From IMG/VR virus record IMGVR_UViG_3300047471_000949: a stretch of DNA of 57,059 bases; one strand, 5' to 3'. Under the pieces are notes generated by a model. The model had not been told where the DNA came from, ran no database searches, and was given only the letters and a program-made list of their open reading frames with translations. Position 1 is the first letter of the stretch; each line of letters starts with the position of its first letter. Made by a program: the position numbers and the translations under genes. The stretch is from a virus. Lineage: Duplodnaviria; Heunggongvirae; Uroviricota; Caudoviricetes. Positions 25,730 through 47,833 of this stretch are shown here, piece by piece.

Positions 25730-25812
25730 GGACGACTGGCATATGGAAACTGGCACACCTAACCGCCTTAGAAGCGGCGCTTTTCGGGGTTCGACTCCCC
25801 GGTCGTCTACCA
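25730..25812 (+). tRNA. tRNA-Leu(TAG)
   Basis: CCGC-cttagaa-GCGG; T-arm; CCA. Confidence 0.85.
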
Positions 25813-26203: not shown

Positions 26204-26279
26204 AGCCTGAAAACCAAACAGCAGCGGTGCCGGATTGCAAACCCGGTTTTAGTCGGGGCAGCACCGACTCAGGCTTCCA
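26204..26279 (+). tRNA. tRNA-Cys(GCA), atypical T-loop
   Basis: AGCCTGA/TCAGGCT-TCCA (U73); loop TTGCAAA; T-loop GGCAGCA. Confidence 0.8.
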
Positions 26280-27904: not shown

Positions 27905-28805
27905 CAGTTTCCCGTATGCGGAAAGAGGTTACGTAAGTAACTGACAGGGGATTGTGTCCTATACCACCCCCGACCAGAAATGGGCGAAGCATACCGATCA
28001 AACTAATTTCCTAACAAGGGAGTTCGTCACTTGGCCGTGGCGATAGGATCGACAGTTGGTGAAGGTTAATGTTTCCTGGGTAACACTGGGGGAATAAAGG
28101 GCAGCTAGGCTCTACCGATCATACGCAAACAACTTAGATATGATAGTAAATGATCAGGGCGCGACAAAGTCCGATGCTTAGCGGCAAAGGGCGGCGCGAA
28201 ATATCAAGGGTGGCGGCTCGTACGTTGTCCTGAAGTATTTTCGAGTATCCCGCAAGGAGAAAGGAATTAGGAGTGTTGCATTCTATAAGGCCAAAACCTT
28301 ACGGAACAACTGGAACAGCGCTTCTAGGTAGGTTCTACTATGGGTTCGATTCCCATCGCCCGCTCCAGTATACACATAGAGTTTAACGTGCTTCAACGTT
28401 ATTATGTGTGTATAAAGCGGGTGTCGAGATTGGTATTTCAACTTCATTTGAAACGAAGCATTCAGAAAAAGGCAAAGACTGTTCCAGTGGTAGACGTAAG
28501 TGGTCAAACACGATCCCGCAAGGAAGATCGTCCGAGGCGAGCCCGCAAGGTTCACCCCTGTTGTTTGAGGAAACTTCATAATCGCTTAGCGGCGACTAAC
28601 TGATCCAAAGTCAGGTGGAGCGACAATCAGACGAGTAGCTTACCGCGATAAAGGAACCGCCACCTTTCAAAGGCGACCATGATCGGATACTTGTTGACTA
28701 GCGATGGCATCAAAAGCAGTGAGTGGACGCGAATGAAACCCGAGTGGGCAATCTTGGGGCATAATCTTCAAAGGCCGATCAATGAAACTGTAATCTCAGG
28801 TTTCT
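27905..28805 (+). ncRNA. Large ornate ncRNA, GOLLD-like
   Basis: ~900 nt without a credible ORF, with its own promoter (TTGACA 27869), inside a phage tRNA array. Has many GNRA hairpins (CCCGCAAGG x3), long-range CTGGAACAG/CTGTTCCAG and a 3' GAAACTGTAATCTCAGGTTTC hairpin. Family assignment is from recalled motifs, not a CM search. Confidence 0.65.
28330..28444 (+). ncRNA. Circularly permuted tRNA-Gly-like domain embedded in the large ncRNA
   Basis: The 3' half (T-arm ATGGG-ttcgatt-CCCAT, CGCCCGC-T-CCA, 28340-67) precedes the 5' half (GCGGGTG + D-arm, 28417-39); they are separated by a TATACACATA/TATGTGTGTATA hairpin. Confidence 0.8.
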
Positions 28806-37611: not shown

Positions 37612-38439
37612 ATGCAACCTACCTTCCTAATGGTCCGACCAGAATACTTCCGAGTTGATTATTCAATAAATCCTTGGATGCACCCGGATGAATGGAAACT
37701 AGATTATAGCCAGCTAGCACAACAACAATGGAACCAGCTAAAAGGTAAAATAGAAGATGCTGGAGGAAAAGTTATAGTAGAACACGGCCAACCAGACTGT
37801 CCTGATATGTGTTTTGTCGCTAATGCTGGTGTTGTTCTTGATAATAAAGCGTTAGCATCATCGTTTGTACATCCTGAAAGACAAACCGAAGAAGCACGAT
37901 GGTATCGTATCTTTTATAAATCACTGTTTATAGACAACGTATATTTTACGGCTTATTATGGGAGATATATTCCATTCGAGGGAGCTGGAGACTGTTTATG
38001 GGATTCCACCAGAAAAACATTTTGGTTAGGCCACGGAATTCGGAGTGATATTGAGGCAACCGCTGAAGTTATTAAGGCCTTTCACAAACCAGTTAAACCT
38101 TTACAATTGATCGATCCCCGTTTTTATCATCTCGATATGGCGATGTGTATTCTGCCGCACGGCGAGATACTAAATAATCCTGAAGCATTTGATACCGATT
38201 CACGCAAAATCTTATCTTTACAAGAAAACATTTTCGTTTCCGAAGCCGACGCTTTGGCGTTTGCCTGCAATTTAGTAGCAGTTAATGATAGTTTGATCGT
38301 CAATAATGGTATATCCGAGGAATTGTTTAACGAACTGACTGTGCGAGGTTATACTGTTATACAAACCGATTTTTCAGCCTTTATAAAAGCGGGAGGAGCC
38401 GCCTCTTGTCTAACCCTTAGATTGGATAATAAATCATGA
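37612..38439 (+). CDS. Amidinotransferase/pentein-family hydrolase (arginine dihydrolase ArgZ-N / DDAH-like)
   Basis: FLMVRPEYFRVDYSINPWM, PDMCFVANAG, FEGAGD, PRFYHLD, FIKAGGAASCLTL. Confidence 0.88.
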   Translation: MQPTFLMVRPEYFRVDYSINPWMHPDEWKLDYSQLAQQQWNQLKGKIEDAGGKVIVEHGQPDCPDMCFVANAGVVLDNKALASSFVHPERQTEEARWYRIFYKSLFIDNVYFTAYYGRYIPFEGAGDCLWDSTRKTFWLGHGIRSDIEATAEVIKAFHKPVKPLQLIDPRFYHLDMAMCILPHGEILNNPEAFDTDSRKILSLQENIFVSEADALAFACNLVAVNDSLIVNNGISEELFNELTVRGYTVIQTDFSAFIKAGGAASCLTLRLDNKS

Positions 38440-39402: not shown

Positions 39403-39686
39403 TTTTCAAGCCTAGATGATCGAGCTACGGCTAGGAAACTCCGGACTTCTAATGCACAAGTAGCGGGTAACTCCCGTCCACCGTGAGGTGAGGATTAGAA
39501 TCACAGAGACGAGTAAAGTGAAACGCGATAATCTCTACTTGAAGCAACCCCAAGTTCTCCGACGAGTGTGCATTCTCATTTCTTAAATGGATGTTAGGTA
39601 ATGGTAGGGGGCAAAGAATTCAACAGTAATGTTGAATCAAGACGAATGATCATCGTTATACAAAATCCGGGTTATTGGCTTGAAAA
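39403..39686 (+). ncRNA. rnpB: RNase P RNA (compact, bacterial type)
   Basis: P1 TTTTCAAGCC/GGCTTGAAAA; GGAAACTCCGGAC and ACAAAATCCGGGTTA form P4 with bulged U and a compensatory swap; CACAGAGAC, GTGAAAC and GAAGCAA conserved regions. Confidence 0.88.
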
Positions 39687-39884
39687 TTAATACGAGACCT
39701 CGATACTACGAATGACCGCATCAATATCGGTTTTCCAATAGTTAAGGAACCGATGGACTCTAGGTAATTGTGGAATTTCATCGTCGATCTGCCAATAAAA
39801 TTCCTGTAAGATATTGACAAAGTCAGGCCTGTAGTATAAAATACCTACTGTTACCAATTCTCGACGTTGAATTTTAATAAGCAC
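39687..39884 (-). CDS. usg: Usg-family protein
   Basis: ILYYRPD...LQEFYWQIDDEIPQLPRVHRFLNYW...I. Confidence 0.8.
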   Translation of the reverse strand: MLIKIQRRELVTVGILYYRPDFVNILQEFYWQIDDEIPQLPRVHRFLNYWKTDIDAVIRSIEVSY

Positions 39885-40010: not shown

Positions 40011-40093
40011 GGTCACGTAGCCGAACTAGCCTGCGAAGTTAGTAACCGTAACTGGAGCTGGAAATAGGAGTTCGAATCTCCTCGTGATCGCCA
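40011..40093 (+). tRNA. Rearranged tRNA-like RNA, Arg anticodon GCG
   Basis: GGTCACG/CGTGATC-GCCA; ACTAGC-ctgcgaa-GTTAGT; CCGTAACTGGAGCTG; canonical T-arm; no canonical D-arm. Confidence 0.8.
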
Positions 40094-40094
40094 T

Positions 40095-40178
40095 GGTCCA
40101 CTAGCCGACGTGCGCTTCGAACGCATGACACCGTAACTGGAGCTGAAAATGCGGGTTCGAGTCCTGCGTGGATCGCCA
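40095..40178 (+). tRNA. Rearranged tRNA-like RNA, Arg anticodon TCG
   Basis: GGTCCAC/GTGGATC-GCCA; GTGCG-cttcgaa-CGCAT; CCGTAACTGGAGCTG; T-arm. Confidence 0.8.
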
Positions 40179-40198
40179 TTATCAATACCCTATTCATC

Positions 40199-41320
40199 TT
40201 AAAAATCTATAGCTGCTCTTCTAGGAAGTATGTCCCGTAAATTCCGTCCCCGTTTTTTTATCACTATTGTATGGGATGGAATATAACCAAAATATCGTGT
40301 TTCTTTTCTACCACGTAGATTCCGTCTTTTAACTTTTCGCACTTCAAGCCCCATTGCATGAGCCATTCCTGCTATTGAGACTTGTTTCCAACCAGTTGCG
40401 GCGAGAATTTCTTCTTTAGTAGTTCCCTTCGGATTGATTAATAGATCATAGACAATTTTGTTTTTACCAACATGACGCTTAACTTGTTTAATAGCATTAT
40501 TCAGAGCCGCTGCAGCTTCCCTTCTGCCAACTGGCCGGCCAAATCCGCCGCGCGCAAATAAACTTTTTCGCAAATGTTCTGGGGGTTCTACAGGACGTAC
40601 AACTTGTCGTAACGGCTTTGGTGCTGGGGGGCGGACAATCGGGTGATCAAAAACAAACTGGAATTGGCGAGGCGCACGAGGTGGCGCAGCTTCCTCAGCA
40701 CTATTTCCATAAGCTACCGGATCAGTTAATACTGGTACTTTTCCTCGCCACATAATATTAGCATCGTGTAGATCAAAATTAGCACCAGTTGGATCAATAA
40801 CGTGCTTCTGTATATCATCTAAGGCCTTGGCTAATTGTGCTCGACCGTGAAATATTGGTTCTAGTTTTTTATTTAATTCTTTAATCCGCCGAATAGTGTT
40901 GTCGTTACGATTTCCTTTAAACTTAAGATCAGAAACCTCCCTGCGTAAATCCCTCATAGTGTATATATAAGTATTGATATCTTTTGTGTCCTCTTGTTGC
41001 CGCTCACTCCGATCATTATATGGCTGAAGTTTCTCCATTCGGACTGCTGTATAATTCTTATTAACCCGCATAGGCAATCCGCGTAATTTAGGAAAATGTG
41101 GATTATCCGGCTGCGATTGGACCAATTTCAGGAACCGTTTATAGGCGTGGTCTCGGTCCTGAAACAGCTTCAAGACATAAGGTTTACCCTGCCTGCCATA
41201 AACAGAGGCAAACATACCACCGCCCAGACGTCGCCATCCAGCAGCCTTTAATCGGACTTCGGCATCGTTAACGCCTACGGGCAACGACAGTTCACTGATA
41301 ATTGATCGAAGTCTTTTCAT
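40199..41320 (-). CDS. T7 gp0.7-like Ser/Thr protein kinase with C-terminal DUF3489-like HTH region
   Basis: LGGGMFASVY, YVLKLF, NPHFPKL, VRMEKL, DLHDANIM, LTDPV; C-terminal LLINPKGTTKEEILAATGWKQVS; start reassigned to 41320. Confidence 0.8.
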   Translation of the reverse strand: MKRLRSIISELSLPVGVNDAEVRLKAAGWRRLGGGMFASVYGRQGKPYVLKLFQDRDHAYKRFLKLVQSQPDNPHFPKLRGLPMRVNKNYTAVRMEKLQPYNDRSERQQEDTKDINTYIYTMRDLRREVSDLKFKGNRNDNTIRRIKELNKKLEPIFHGRAQLAKALDDIQKHVIDPTGANFDLHDANIMWRGKVPVLTDPVAYGNSAEEAAPPRAPRQFQFVFDHPIVRPPAPKPLRQVVRPVEPPEHLRKSLFARGGFGRPVGRREAAAALNNAIKQVKRHVGKNKIVYDLLINPKGTTKEEILAATGWKQVSIAGMAHAMGLEVRKVKRRNLRGRKETRYFGYIPSHTIVIKKRGRNLRDILPRRAAIDF

Positions 41321-41337
41321 CGTTATATTTACTTTAT

Positions 41338-41412
41338 TGGGGATTAGGCTAACTGGCAAACCATCGGACTCTGACTCCGAATTTCGTGGTTCAAATCCAC
41401 GATCCCCAACCA
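41338..41412 (+). tRNA. tRNA-Gln(CTG)
   Basis: TCGGA-ctctgac-TCCGA; U1-A72. Confidence 0.92.
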
Positions 41413-41529
41413 AAAACAGTTGTTGACATCTGGTGTAGGTCCTGTTATAAATAAGATGAACGACTACTTTAACACTATTCAAAGGAGCAACAGCTATGAC
41501 GAAGTAACCTAAACAAAAGGAGAAAAGTC

Positions 41530-41748
41530 ATGGTTGTTGCCAAACTTAAAAAGGCAAAAAAGTCTAAGAAGCAGCGCAAACACGGCCGCGCCCATCGTGG
41601 TCAGGATTACGCAAAGCTTTATAAGCTTCGCCATACCCGCGAGCATAACAAGGTCCGTCATCTTAATAAGCATATACTGAGACATCCAAACGACGATTGT
41701 GCAGTACGAGCTATCGATAACGCGATGAAAGTTATTCGAGGGTTTTAA
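41530..41748 (+). CDS. Small basic phage protein
   Basis: AGGAG RBS; KHILRHPND..A..AI motif. Confidence 0.7.
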   Translation: MVVAKLKKAKKSKKQRKHGRAHRGQDYAKLYKLRHTREHNKVRHLNKHILRHPNDDCAVRAIDNAMKVIRGF

Positions 41749-41831
41749 GGTCGCCTAGCCGAGCTGAGCTTCTACCTCAGTAACCGTAATTGGAGCTGAA
41801 AATGCGGGTCCGAATCCTGCGGCGATCGCCA
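41749..41831 (+). tRNA. Rearranged tRNA-like RNA, Arg anticodon TCT
   Basis: GGTCGCC/GGCGATC-GCCA; GCTGAG-cttctac-CTCAGT; CCGTAATTGGAGCTG; T-loop TCCGAAT. Confidence 0.8.
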
Positions 41832-41834
41832 ATT

Positions 41835-41911
41835 GCTCTAGTATCTGTCCTGTCTCCTAAACAGGTACCAGTAATGGAAGAATGCGAGTCCGATTCTCGC
41901 CTAGAGCCCCA
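41835..41911 (+). tRNA. Rearranged tRNA-like RNA, Arg anticodon CCT
   Basis: GCTCTAG/CTAGAGC-CCCA; CCTGT-ctcctaa-ACAGG; CCA-gtaa-TGG; T-loop TCCGATT. Confidence 0.78.
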
Positions 41912-47426: not shown

Positions 47427-47833
47427 TCAAGAAATACTTTTATCAGATACTTCAAGAAATCTGTATGGCTCCTACCCGACAGGATAAGATTATTTTACTC
47501 CGCCATCATGATGAGCCGGCCTTGCGTGGCTATCTCAAAATGGCGTTCGATAGGAACTTGAACTGGTTACTACCTGATGGCGCTCCTCCATTTAAGCCGT
47601 GTGCGGAACTAGACGTTGAGTTTGTCCTTCGACACGAATATCGCCGCATGTATATATTCCTGGAAGGCGGTAATCCCAACCTTAAACAGAAACAGCGCGA
47701 AGCACTATTCGTCACTTTATTAGAATCAGTTCATCCCAAAGATGCGGAGTTTTTGGTTGATGTGGTGAAGGACAAGAAGGTTCCGCCAGGGATTGATGCA
47801 AGGATTATTCAGGAGGCTTGGCCAGGCTGGTAA
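47423..47833 (+). CDS. Conserved T4-like hypothetical protein
   Basis: WLLPDGAPPF...YIFLEGGN.NL...REALFVTLLESVHPKDA. Confidence 0.8.
   Translation: MIKKYFYQILQEICMAPTRQDKIILLRHHDEPALRGYLKMAFDRNLNWLLPDGAPPFKPCAELDVEFVLRHEYRRMYIFLEGGNPNLKQKQREALFVTLLESVHPKDAEFLVDVVKDKKVPPGIDARIIQEAWPGW

Follow-up and report, generated by a model that had tools for sequence, protein, structure and literature searches.

Several natural elongator-type departures from the 7/5 cloverleaf of transfer RNA (tRNA) have been described: allo-tRNAs carry 8/4 or 9/3 acceptor/T branches (PMC5389517), tRNA-Sec has a 6-base-pair (bp) D-stem, and in tRNA-Pyl the acceptor stem is followed by a one-nucleotide connector (PMC7609411). 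D-armless mitochondrial tRNAs such as mt-tRNA-Ser(AGY) and the synthetic mini HisT (PMC11551756) form a further group. According to a 2024 paper, all known bacterial tRNAs are cloverleaves. The stretch of DNA analyzed here (the window, 57,059 nucleotides (nt)) is the minus strand of positions 29285-86343 of the 184,965-bp IMG/VR virus record IMGVR_UViG_3300047471_000949, a phage genome that CheckV rates as 100% complete, and it contains four tRNA-like elements with arginine anticodons, e1 to e4. Whereas allo-tRNAs, tRNA-Sec and tRNA-Pyl keep the cloverleaf arm order and alter arm lengths only, e1–e4 and their homologs, which we call rewired tRNAs, alter connectivity. Based on comparative evidence, we propose that e1–e4 are most likely working arginine isoacceptors of non-cloverleaf structure that are charged by the host arginyl-tRNA synthetase (ArgRS), a reading to which we assign a probability of about 0.7.

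An earlier note on this DNA had described four elements with 7-bp acceptor stems, NCCA ends, T arms and 7-nt loops of the form CU-NNN-A(A/C), lacking a normal D-arm, and we confirm that e1–e4 are real and lie where that note placed them (Table 1). They sit inside a tRNA island as two tandem pairs, with e1 and e2 separated by 1 nt and e3 and e4 by 3 nt. Each consists of a 7-bp acceptor stem, a discriminator base with an encoded CCA (GCCA in three, CCCA in one), a T arm with a 5-bp stem and a 7-nt loop, and a 5-bp anticodon-type hairpin with the loop CUGCGAA, CUUCGAA, CUUCUAC or CUCCUAA, respectively. All four hairpins have the hallmarks of a canonical anticodon arm, namely a 5-bp stem, a 7-nt loop, U33 and a purine at position 37. 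The acceptor stem is followed by only 7-8 nt before the anticodon hairpin, and therefore e1–e4 have no D hairpin.

Canonical tRNA-Arg (RF00005; E. coli ICG and UCU; phage T4) shares with e1–e4 the 7-bp acceptor stem, the discriminator and CCA, the 5-bp T stem with a UUCGA-type loop, and the 5-bp anticodon stem, and rewired tRNAs also share its arginine determinants C35 and U/G36. Furthermore, the rewired 5' segment UAGCCGAG resembles canonical positions 8-15, and YUGGA-GCUG resembles the canonical D-loop GG-A20 followed by the 3' strand of the D-stem. The rewired loops CUACGAA and CUUCUAA presumably match those of E. coli and T4 tRNA-Arg. Unlike in the canonical molecule, the anticodon arm is placed between the two D-stem strands, the GG-A loop becomes a bulge in the 3' strand, and no arm separates that strand from the T arm. 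The parts of a canonical tRNA thus appear to be kept in rewired tRNAs, with their connectivity changed.

Two further known classes are close to this layout. In comparison to D-armless mitochondrial tRNAs and mini HisT, rewired tRNAs keep the D-stem pairs and the GG-A in a new order; their connector pairs with downstream segments and their GG-A is conserved, which sets them apart from the D-armless (type III) class. Their carriers are bacterial phages, and the family is almost entirely arginine-specific by anticodon, with few isoleucine members. Class II tRNAs (Leu, Ser, Tyr), to which nematode nev-tRNAs with their long variable arm also belong, likewise carry extra nucleotides between the anticodon and T arms. 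Unlike in class II, the extra segment of rewired tRNAs pairs back to the 5' linker and has no conserved hairpin of its own: the candidate mini-hairpin discussed below lacks covariation and cannot form in most members with a 7-nt linker. The layout was not described in full-text searches or in reviews of non-canonical tRNAs, and, as a tRNA with changed connectivity, it would be new relative to the published record. To this the window adds a complete four-anticodon set in place of canonical tRNA-Arg, the only GCG member seen, and both subfamilies side by side; our analysis adds a correction of the mini-hairpin, a statistic on anticodon complementarity, and a parallel between arginine and isoleucine members at position 20.

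Architecture of the four elements

Covariance models separate e1–e4 from everything else in the window. Model R1 was built from e1, e3 and one jumbo-phage homolog, and model R2 with the split-D-stem structure described below. With filters off, R2 scores the four elements between 56.6 and 90.5 bits (Table 1) and the rest of the window at 27.7 bits or less, a gap far beyond chance. R1 as well as R2 sets e1–e4 apart from all ordinary tRNAs of the window. The suggestion of the earlier note that they represent a distinct tRNA architecture is supported; this architecture is conserved and non-cloverleaf. The score of e4 rises by the change from R1 to R2, which pairs its CUG (41845-41847) with CAG (41869-41871).

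Standard tools recognize the elements poorly. ARAGORN called only e1 among the four, as tRNA-Val(AAC), an assignment we reject since the anticodon stem so read is not kept in e2–e4 or the homologs. The Rfam tRNA model (RF00005) scores e1 at 34, e3 at 25.6 and e2 at 24.3 bits relative to a gathering score of 29 and does not hit e4; its alignment of e1 takes the anticodon hairpin as the anticodon arm, deletes the D-arm (15 model positions), and inserts 20 nt in the variable region. A match to an already described Rfam family, named in the earlier note as a possible refutation, was not found beyond these weak tRNA hits. Minimum-free-energy folding of single sequences was uninformative, yielding inconsistent folds with z-scores near zero for e1–e3.

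The secondary structure was derived from 46 distinct members of 80 nt with an 8-nt linker (the subfamily of e1–e3), aligned without gaps. Double-sided changes occur in all acceptor and anticodon-stem pairs and in four of five T-stem pairs; the acceptor pairs are 99% paired, and all seven covary. The first clue to pairing across the anticodon arm came from phage PA11, in which CGA...CCG is replaced by CCC...GGG. Pair 10-48 is GC in 31 sequences, AU in 13, and CG and UA in one each, and pair 11-47 is CG in 34, UA in six and AU in three. On the inner side, pair 12-38 is C-G throughout, pair 13-37 is GC in 38, AU in four, CG in three and GU in one without a single broken case, and pair 14-36 is formed in 25 of 46 sequences by five pair types. 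An extension by pair 15-35, paired in only 18/46, was dropped. In an all-against-all scan of mutual information, the acceptor, anticodon and T stems are recovered together with 10-48, 13-37, 14-36 and 11-47.

These data suggest a D-stem with a contiguous 5' strand (positions 8-14) and a 3' strand that is split (36-38 and 47-50) by the segment UAAYUGGA. The 5' strand, U8-A9-G10-C11-C12-G13-(A14), would follow the acceptor stem directly and pair with (N36)-C37-G38 and G47-C48-U49-G50. Because positions 8-14 pair with both flanking 3' segments, UAAYUGGA is read as an unpaired, D-loop-like bulge and not as a mini-hairpin. The outer helix, H1 (8/9-11 with 47-49/50), encloses the anticodon arm and is UAGC/GCUG in e1–e3; the inner helix, H2 (12-13(14) with (36)37-38, across the anticodon arm), is CG/CG in e1–e3 and CUG/CAG in e4. 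On the 3' side, the bulge between H2 and H1 comprises 7-8 nt of the form UAA(Y)UGGA, occurring as UAACUGGA twice, as UAAUUGGA once, and as UAAUGGA in e4; UGGA is invariant in all 46 aligned sequences. In the 8-nt form it would bear the hallmarks of a D-loop, a GG followed by an A. The anticodon arm would occupy the place of the normal D-loop, capped onto the inner end of the D-stem helix, and a 5-nt connector would lead from the D-stem to the T arm. In the second, compact subfamily with a 7-nt linker, to which e4 belongs, the homologous H2 pairs are formed in 47/47 and 46/47 members, with CG, GC, UA and AU variants. As in e4, the connector to the T arm is 4-5 nt long in other family members with a CCU anticodon.

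The earlier note had instead folded CC(A)GUAA(Y)UGGA into a conserved mini-hairpin, in which case e1–e4 would still be working tRNAs, with a short helix enclosing the anticodon hairpin and a CCGUAAYUGG mini-hairpin; they would effectively be D-armless and carry a small extra arm. Nearest-neighbor energies in e1–e4 do favor this fold, by 1.5-4.5 kcal/mol over the H2 fold, and standard pairs form at 36-45 and 37-44 in 36/46 and 43/46 sequences of the 8-nt-linker subfamily. In contrast to the covarying pair 13-37 with no broken case, however, the mini-hairpin (36-38 with 43-45) shows no double-sided change and 13 broken cells among the 46 sequences, and none of its pairs emerges from the mutual-information scan. 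The PA11-type CCC...GGG pairs across the anticodon arm and not with UGG, and at least 35 of the 47 members with a 7-nt linker carry a GG before the bulge that is unable to pair with UGG, whereas their cross-arm pairs are almost always formed. We consider the mini-hairpin quite unlikely and assign CCG (36-38) to pairing with 12-14, leaving UAAYUGGA unpaired. Of the closing helix proposed in the same note, UAGC/GCUG stands, with covariation at 10-48 and 11-47; UCU/AGA in e4 gives way to CUG/CAG, which the homologs conserve.

Four observations weigh against the reading of e1–e4 as working tRNAs with this structure. At pair 14-36, 21 of the 46 sequences have A.C. Among members with a 7-nt linker, e4 included, H1 is weak or ambiguous; in e4, as in others of this subfamily, only U10-A47 and possibly U8-A49 pair. 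Because the folding energies favor the mini-hairpin, the secondary structure of e1–e4 rests on comparative data and not on thermodynamics. Lastly, the T-loops of e3 and e4 read UCCGA instead of UUCGA, C replacing U at the equivalent of position 55; UUCGA was a fixed part of the T-loop in the family-wide searches.

A permuted gene or an intron was also considered as the origin of the unusual order of segments. We rejected both by reasoning, as excision of the inserted hairpin would eliminate the sole anticodon, and reordering would need two cuts and two ligations.

The phage-borne family and its anticodons

A 21-nt motif common to e1–e3 led to a homolog in jumbo-phage contigs with other stem sequences and the loop CUACGAA. 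For viral contigs, we then used a pattern that fixed two stem bases of the T arm with the first five bases of the adjoining loop, GUAAYUGGA, and the CU...A loop frame, while leaving the anticodon triplet and all helices of interest free. At least 119 viral contigs matched, and a stricter pattern matched 28 contigs among 185,579 prokaryotic species genomes (GTDB); cmsearch confirmed 116 matches of the viral scan and 44 of the GTDB scan. Pooled with an earlier set, the family comprises at least 158 distinct rewired sequences from more than 150 viral contigs and from cultured phages. Of 36 loci from a first gapped pattern, 12 were not hit by the model at E<=1e-5 and were set aside as having matched by chance. 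Likewise, none of seven viral loci found with the e4 motif CCAGTAATGGAAGAATG was confirmed by the model, and blastn of e4 against cultured phages gave no match.

Although the triplet was free in the search, an arginine anticodon is present in 151 of the 158 matches listed, as compared to about 9% expected for a free triplet, and the restriction to arginine anticipated in the earlier note thus holds. The anticodons among these matches are UCU (75), ACG (47), UCG (18), CCU (9), GCG (1, e1), CCG (1), GAU (5), UAU (1) and CUU (1). The same note had called GCG rare among bacterial arginine anticodons. This is true within the rewired family, where e1 is the only GCG member (1/151 of the arginine members among the matches listed), but GCG is not unusual in ordinary phage tRNA-Arg genes, in which it occurs at about ten of the loci examined.

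The family is phage-borne. Where examined, the 27 contigs from metagenome-assembled genomes that contain members show dense tRNA arrays, and the only hit in an isolate genome, that of Limoniibacter endophyticus KCTC 42097 (L205:179-252), lies in a prophage beside terminase and tape-measure genes. Cultured carriers include PA11-type Pseudomonas phages, the Microbacterium phages Pumpernickel and Zooman, Maribacter phage Panino, Mesorhizobium phage Cp1R7A-A1 and Xanthomonas jumbo phage XacN1, none of whose records has a tRNA feature at the match. PA11 is recorded as having no tRNA at all; if the rewired RNAs are charged and used, phage tRNA repertoires are under-counted. The sequencing runs that contain the window stretch are from rhizosphere and soil metagenomes; all runs listed as containing it are DNA, and none is an RNA run.

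Could e1–e4 be decayed pseudogenes or chance tRNA-like sequences? Their low or absent scores in standard tRNA models would fit such an origin. Against it, the at least 158 distinct homologs carry compensatory changes in every helix, and non-helical motifs as well as the anticodon class are kept across phages of Pseudomonas, Microbacterium, Maribacter, Mesorhizobium and Xanthomonas. The comparative data refute this explanation, to which we attach practically no probability.

Besides the arginine members, the family contains several variants. Six rewired members carry isoleucine anticodons (GAU in five, UAU in one; L035:332-412, L149:4841-4922, L147:12513-12594, L158:6041-6121, L081:193-271 and L135:2238-2314), most of them with GG-U instead of GG-A in the bulge. 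A single rewired-type member (L145:11003-11080) has the loop CUCUUAA (CUU, Lys) and four of five anticodon-stem pairs. Three Arg(UCU) variants (L059:6590-6680, L035:1173-1262 and L054:679-767) contain an extra hairpin of about 10 nt between the 3' strand of the D-stem and the T arm. Finally, a 411-kb phage encodes, 210 nt downstream of its rewired Arg(ACG), a 91-nt tRNA-like element (L003:370-460, identical to G003:C1:156464-156554) with six of seven acceptor pairs, a T arm and an odd interior.

Proposed arginine decoding and rival functional readings

The earlier note had counted 32 normal tRNAs for 19 amino acids, with arginine alone missing. ARAGORN and Rfam together give a lower count, about 27-30 ordinary tRNAs for 18 amino acids (Cys being read by eye only), whereas the lack of a canonical tRNA-Arg stands and extends to the whole 184,965-bp genome, in which ARAGORN detected none even with thresholds lowered to 85%. 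The ArgRS core domain PF00750 has no match in this genome or in that of the 411-kb carrier, and a host enzyme would therefore have to charge e1–e4. Arginine accounts for 4.4% of the phage's codons, with each of the six arginine codons in use (CGA 28%, CGU 20%, AGA 19%, CGC 17%, CGG 9.5%, AGG 6.7%). By wobble rules, GCG, UCG, UCU and CCU together cover these six codons. Rewired tRNAs thus appear to replace every ordinary arginine tRNA in the phage genome.

What is the function of these RNAs? The earlier note raised three options, nuclease-resistant arginine decoders, decoys, and tRNAs charged with another amino acid that recode arginine codons. Plain decoding is favored indirectly, based on the full codon coverage, the lack of canonical tRNA-Arg, the complementarity of anticodons, an A20-like adenosine, and the case of PA11; none of our results points to nuclease resistance, a decoy role or mischarging. 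Conservation, covariation, restriction to arginine, complementarity and genomic context are established here. Rewired and ordinary arginine tRNAs occur together at 53 dereplicated loci; a common anticodon is present at 10 of them, compared to 22.5 +/- 3.0 upon shuffling (P about 1e-4, a rough value because partial contig windows and related phages were used). Such a partition of the arginine codon box is what decoders working together would show. P. aeruginosa, the host of PA11, is GC-rich, at about 66%. The genome of Pseudomonas phage PA11 (NC_007808.1) has a GC content of 44.8%, and AGA and AGG make up 42% of its arginine codons. It has no annotated tRNA, and ARAGORN finds none; the only tRNA-like gene we found in it is one rewired Arg(UCU) ending in GCCA (47672-47751), which shares 27 nt with the end of a coding sequence annotated as an HNH endonuclease.

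Identity elements point in the same direction. In bacteria, arginine identity is set by A20, C35, U/G36 and discriminator A/G73 (U73), and isoleucine identity includes U20 (PMC9976931). C35 and U/G36 are present in all four elements, whose anticodons are NCG or NCU. The A directly after the GG of the bulge is invariant in 46/46 aligned sequences, and isoleucine members mostly have U there; this GG-A versus GG-U pattern would match the bacterial A20/U20 identity rules. The discriminator is G in e1–e3 and C in e4 and varies across the family, and free variation of acceptor stems and discriminators is what would be expected for arginine identity. Two points, in addition to the roughness of the P value, weigh against the reading of e1–e4 as working arginine tRNAs: the discriminator C of e4 is not among the listed bacterial determinants A/G/U73 (PMC9976931), and because GUAAYUGGA was required by the search patterns, the way in which arginine members were sampled accounts for part of the GG-A rule.

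For the tertiary fold, processing, charging and ribosomal use of e1–e4, we infer the following model. The long helix would stack on the anticodon stem to give a leg of normal length, and the bulged GG would contact the T-loop, forming the elbow. The A after the GG would act as A20 and, with C35, provide the main determinant for bacterial ArgRS, allowing the host enzyme to charge e1–e4 with arginine. The GCG anticodon would read CGU/CGC, UCG would read CGA/CGG, UCU would read AGA/AGG, and CCU would read AGG. With ordinary tRNAs for almost all other amino acids in its genome, the phage would thereby decode all six arginine codons itself. In line with this model, the E. coli aminoacyl-tRNA synthetases, EF-Tu and ribosome accept a tRNA lacking the whole D-arm without adaptation (PMC11551756).

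Alternatively, e1–e4 may be tRNA mimics that do not take part in decoding, acting as decoys or sponges for proteins that read tRNA-Arg (colicin D-type anticodon nucleases, modification enzymes or ArgRS) or as regulatory RNAs matured by tRNA processing. In favor of this, their fold departs from the canonical one and is rejected by most tRNA finders, the phage encodes an RNase P RNA as well as several further odd tRNA-like genes, and phage tRNAs interact with tRNA-targeting defenses. A decoy, however, would need neither four anticodons that exactly tile the six arginine codons nor an intact 7-bp acceptor stem with an encoded CCA, nor would one expect its anticodons to differ from those of ordinary arginine tRNAs in the same phage. 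On this explanation, the genome, which has tRNAs for almost all other amino acids, would also contain none for arginine, and the single tRNA-like gene of PA11 fits the AGA/AGG demand of that phage. We regard a role outside decoding as unlikely.

The third option, charging with another amino acid and hence recoding of arginine codons in phage proteins, draws on nothing specific beyond the unusual body of these RNAs and the existence of natural uncoupling between anticodon and identity. Nematode nev-tRNAs are uncoupled in this way. The same holds for some mitochondrial CCU tRNAs (PMC7609411). C35, a main bacterial ArgRS determinant, and the A after GG, the candidate counterpart of the other, A20, are conserved in the rewired family, acceptor stems and discriminators vary freely, which would be in keeping with arginine identity, there is neither a G3:U70 pair nor a long extra arm, and the carriers are phages of unrelated hosts, for which proteome-wide recoding of arginine would be very costly. 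Recoding is, in our judgment, very improbable.

If e1–e4 are charged and used as arginine decoders, a natural tRNA family on bacterial ribosomes breaks the cloverleaf rule by the connectivity of its arms and not just by their lengths. Why would a phage use such tRNAs? It is conceivable, if rather doubtful, that the rewired fold is an adaptation that leaves ArgRS, EF-Tu and the ribosome able to recognize these RNAs while removing the D-arm and elbow geometry read by host nucleases, modification enzymes and decay, such that all arginine decoding relies on host-proof tRNAs, possibly matured by the phage's RNase P RNA. Should this hold, they would be the first natural non-cloverleaf elongator tRNAs on bacterial ribosomes and reveal a new layer of phage–host tRNA conflict. 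If the rewired RNAs are charged and used, the family would also be a natural experiment on the reading of tRNA shape by ArgRS, EF-Tu, RNase P and the ribosome, and would offer a ready-made, compact, possibly orthogonal scaffold for engineering. The window is a particularly clean case, with four anticodons, six codons covered, no canonical tRNA-Arg, and both subfamilies.

Features of the locus and its surroundings

Table 1. Positions of the rewired tRNA-Arg genes, their parts, and an upstream promoter-like site, in window coordinates
Feature	Positions	Strand	Details
e1, rewired tRNA-Arg gene	40011..40093	+	anticodon GCG (40033-40035); ends G-CCA; R2 85.6 bits; Rfam tRNA 34 bits, D-arm deleted
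e1 split D-stem, 5' strand	40018..40024	+	UAGC + CGA; family covariation 10-48, 11-47, 13-37, 14-36
e1 anticodon arm	40026..40042	+	CUAGC / CUGCGAA / GUUAG; 5/5 stem pairs covary in family
e1 split D-stem, 3' strand	40046..40060	+	CCG + bulge UAACUGGA + GCUG; U43, G44, G45, A46 invariant in 46/46
e1 T arm	40066..40082	+	loop UUCGAAU
e2, rewired tRNA-Arg gene	40095..40178	+	anticodon UCG (40117-40119); ends G-CCA; R2 76.5 bits
e2 split D-stem, 5' strand	40102..40108	+	UAGC + CGA
e2 anticodon arm	40110..40126	+	GUGCG / CUUCGAA / CGCAU
e2 split D-stem, 3' strand	40131..40145	+	CCG + bulge UAACUGGA + GCUG
e2 T arm	40151..40167	+	
e3, rewired tRNA-Arg gene	41749..41831	+	anticodon UCU (41771-41773); ends G-CCA; R2 90.5 bits; Rfam tRNA 25.6 bits
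e3 split D-stem, 5' strand	41756..41762	+	UAGC + CGA
e3 anticodon arm	41764..41780	+	CUGAG / CUUCUAC / CUCAG
e3 split D-stem, 3' strand	41784..41798	+	CCG + bulge UAAUUGGA + GCUG
e3 T arm	41804..41820	+	loop UCCGAAU; C at position-55 equivalent
e4, compact rewired tRNA-Arg gene, 7-nt-linker subfamily	41835..41911	+	anticodon CCU (41856-41858); ends C-CCA; R2 56.6, R1 43.5 bits
e4 inner helix H2, putative 5' strand	41845..41847	+	CUG; pairs with CAG 41869-41871 in the R2 alignment
e4 anticodon arm	41849..41865	+	CCUGU / CUCCUAA / ACAGG
e4 CAG, bulge and connector	41869..41883	+	CAG + 7-nt bulge UAAUGGA + short connector AGAAU
e4 T arm	41884..41900	+	loop UCCGAUU
Promoter-like site	39814..39842	+	TTGACA-17-TAAAAT, 11/12; about 170 nt upstream of e1; consensus scan only, no functional weight

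Two further genes bear on the tRNA set of the phage. A Cys(GCA)-like tRNA gene at 26204-26278 (+) has the non-standard T-loop GGCAGCA; it was not called by ARAGORN or Rfam and was read by eye, and without it the set would lack Cys too. At 25730-25812 (+) lies a CCA-ended tRNA-like gene with a 7-bp acceptor stem, a T arm and the loop CUUAGAA (UAG, Leu), in which about 25 nt with a TGGCA direct repeat take the place of the D-arm; R1 and R2 score it at about 19 bits, and relaxed ARAGORN calls it Ala(CGC).

The phage also encodes larger structured RNAs. A bacterial type A RNase P RNA (39403-39690, +; 148.7 bits with a gathering score of 100; 288 nt compared to 367 model positions) lies inside the tRNA island, about 320 nt upstream of e1. 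A GOLLD-like large RNA at 28268-28802 (+) scores 135.4 bits, below the Rfam gathering score of 150, with E = 5e-36.

Assignment of a host through a large conserved protein was uninformative, since this protein is a YeaG/PrkA-type kinase common to unrelated phages. Among the protein-coding neighbors of the four elements, a 72-residue, very basic open reading frame (41530-41748, +) lies directly 5' of e3 and has no Pfam or PHROG match. Between e2 and a tRNA-Gln gene, a 427-residue open reading frame (40199-41482, -) shows a weak match to phrog_15752 (E = 4e-17), a group of phage-encoded protein kinases acting as modulators of host RNases, and hits DUF3489 below threshold. The tRNA island further contains a gene for a DDAH/amidinotransferase-type protein (37612-38439, +; PF19420, E = 1.6e-11), which has an arginine-modifying fold.

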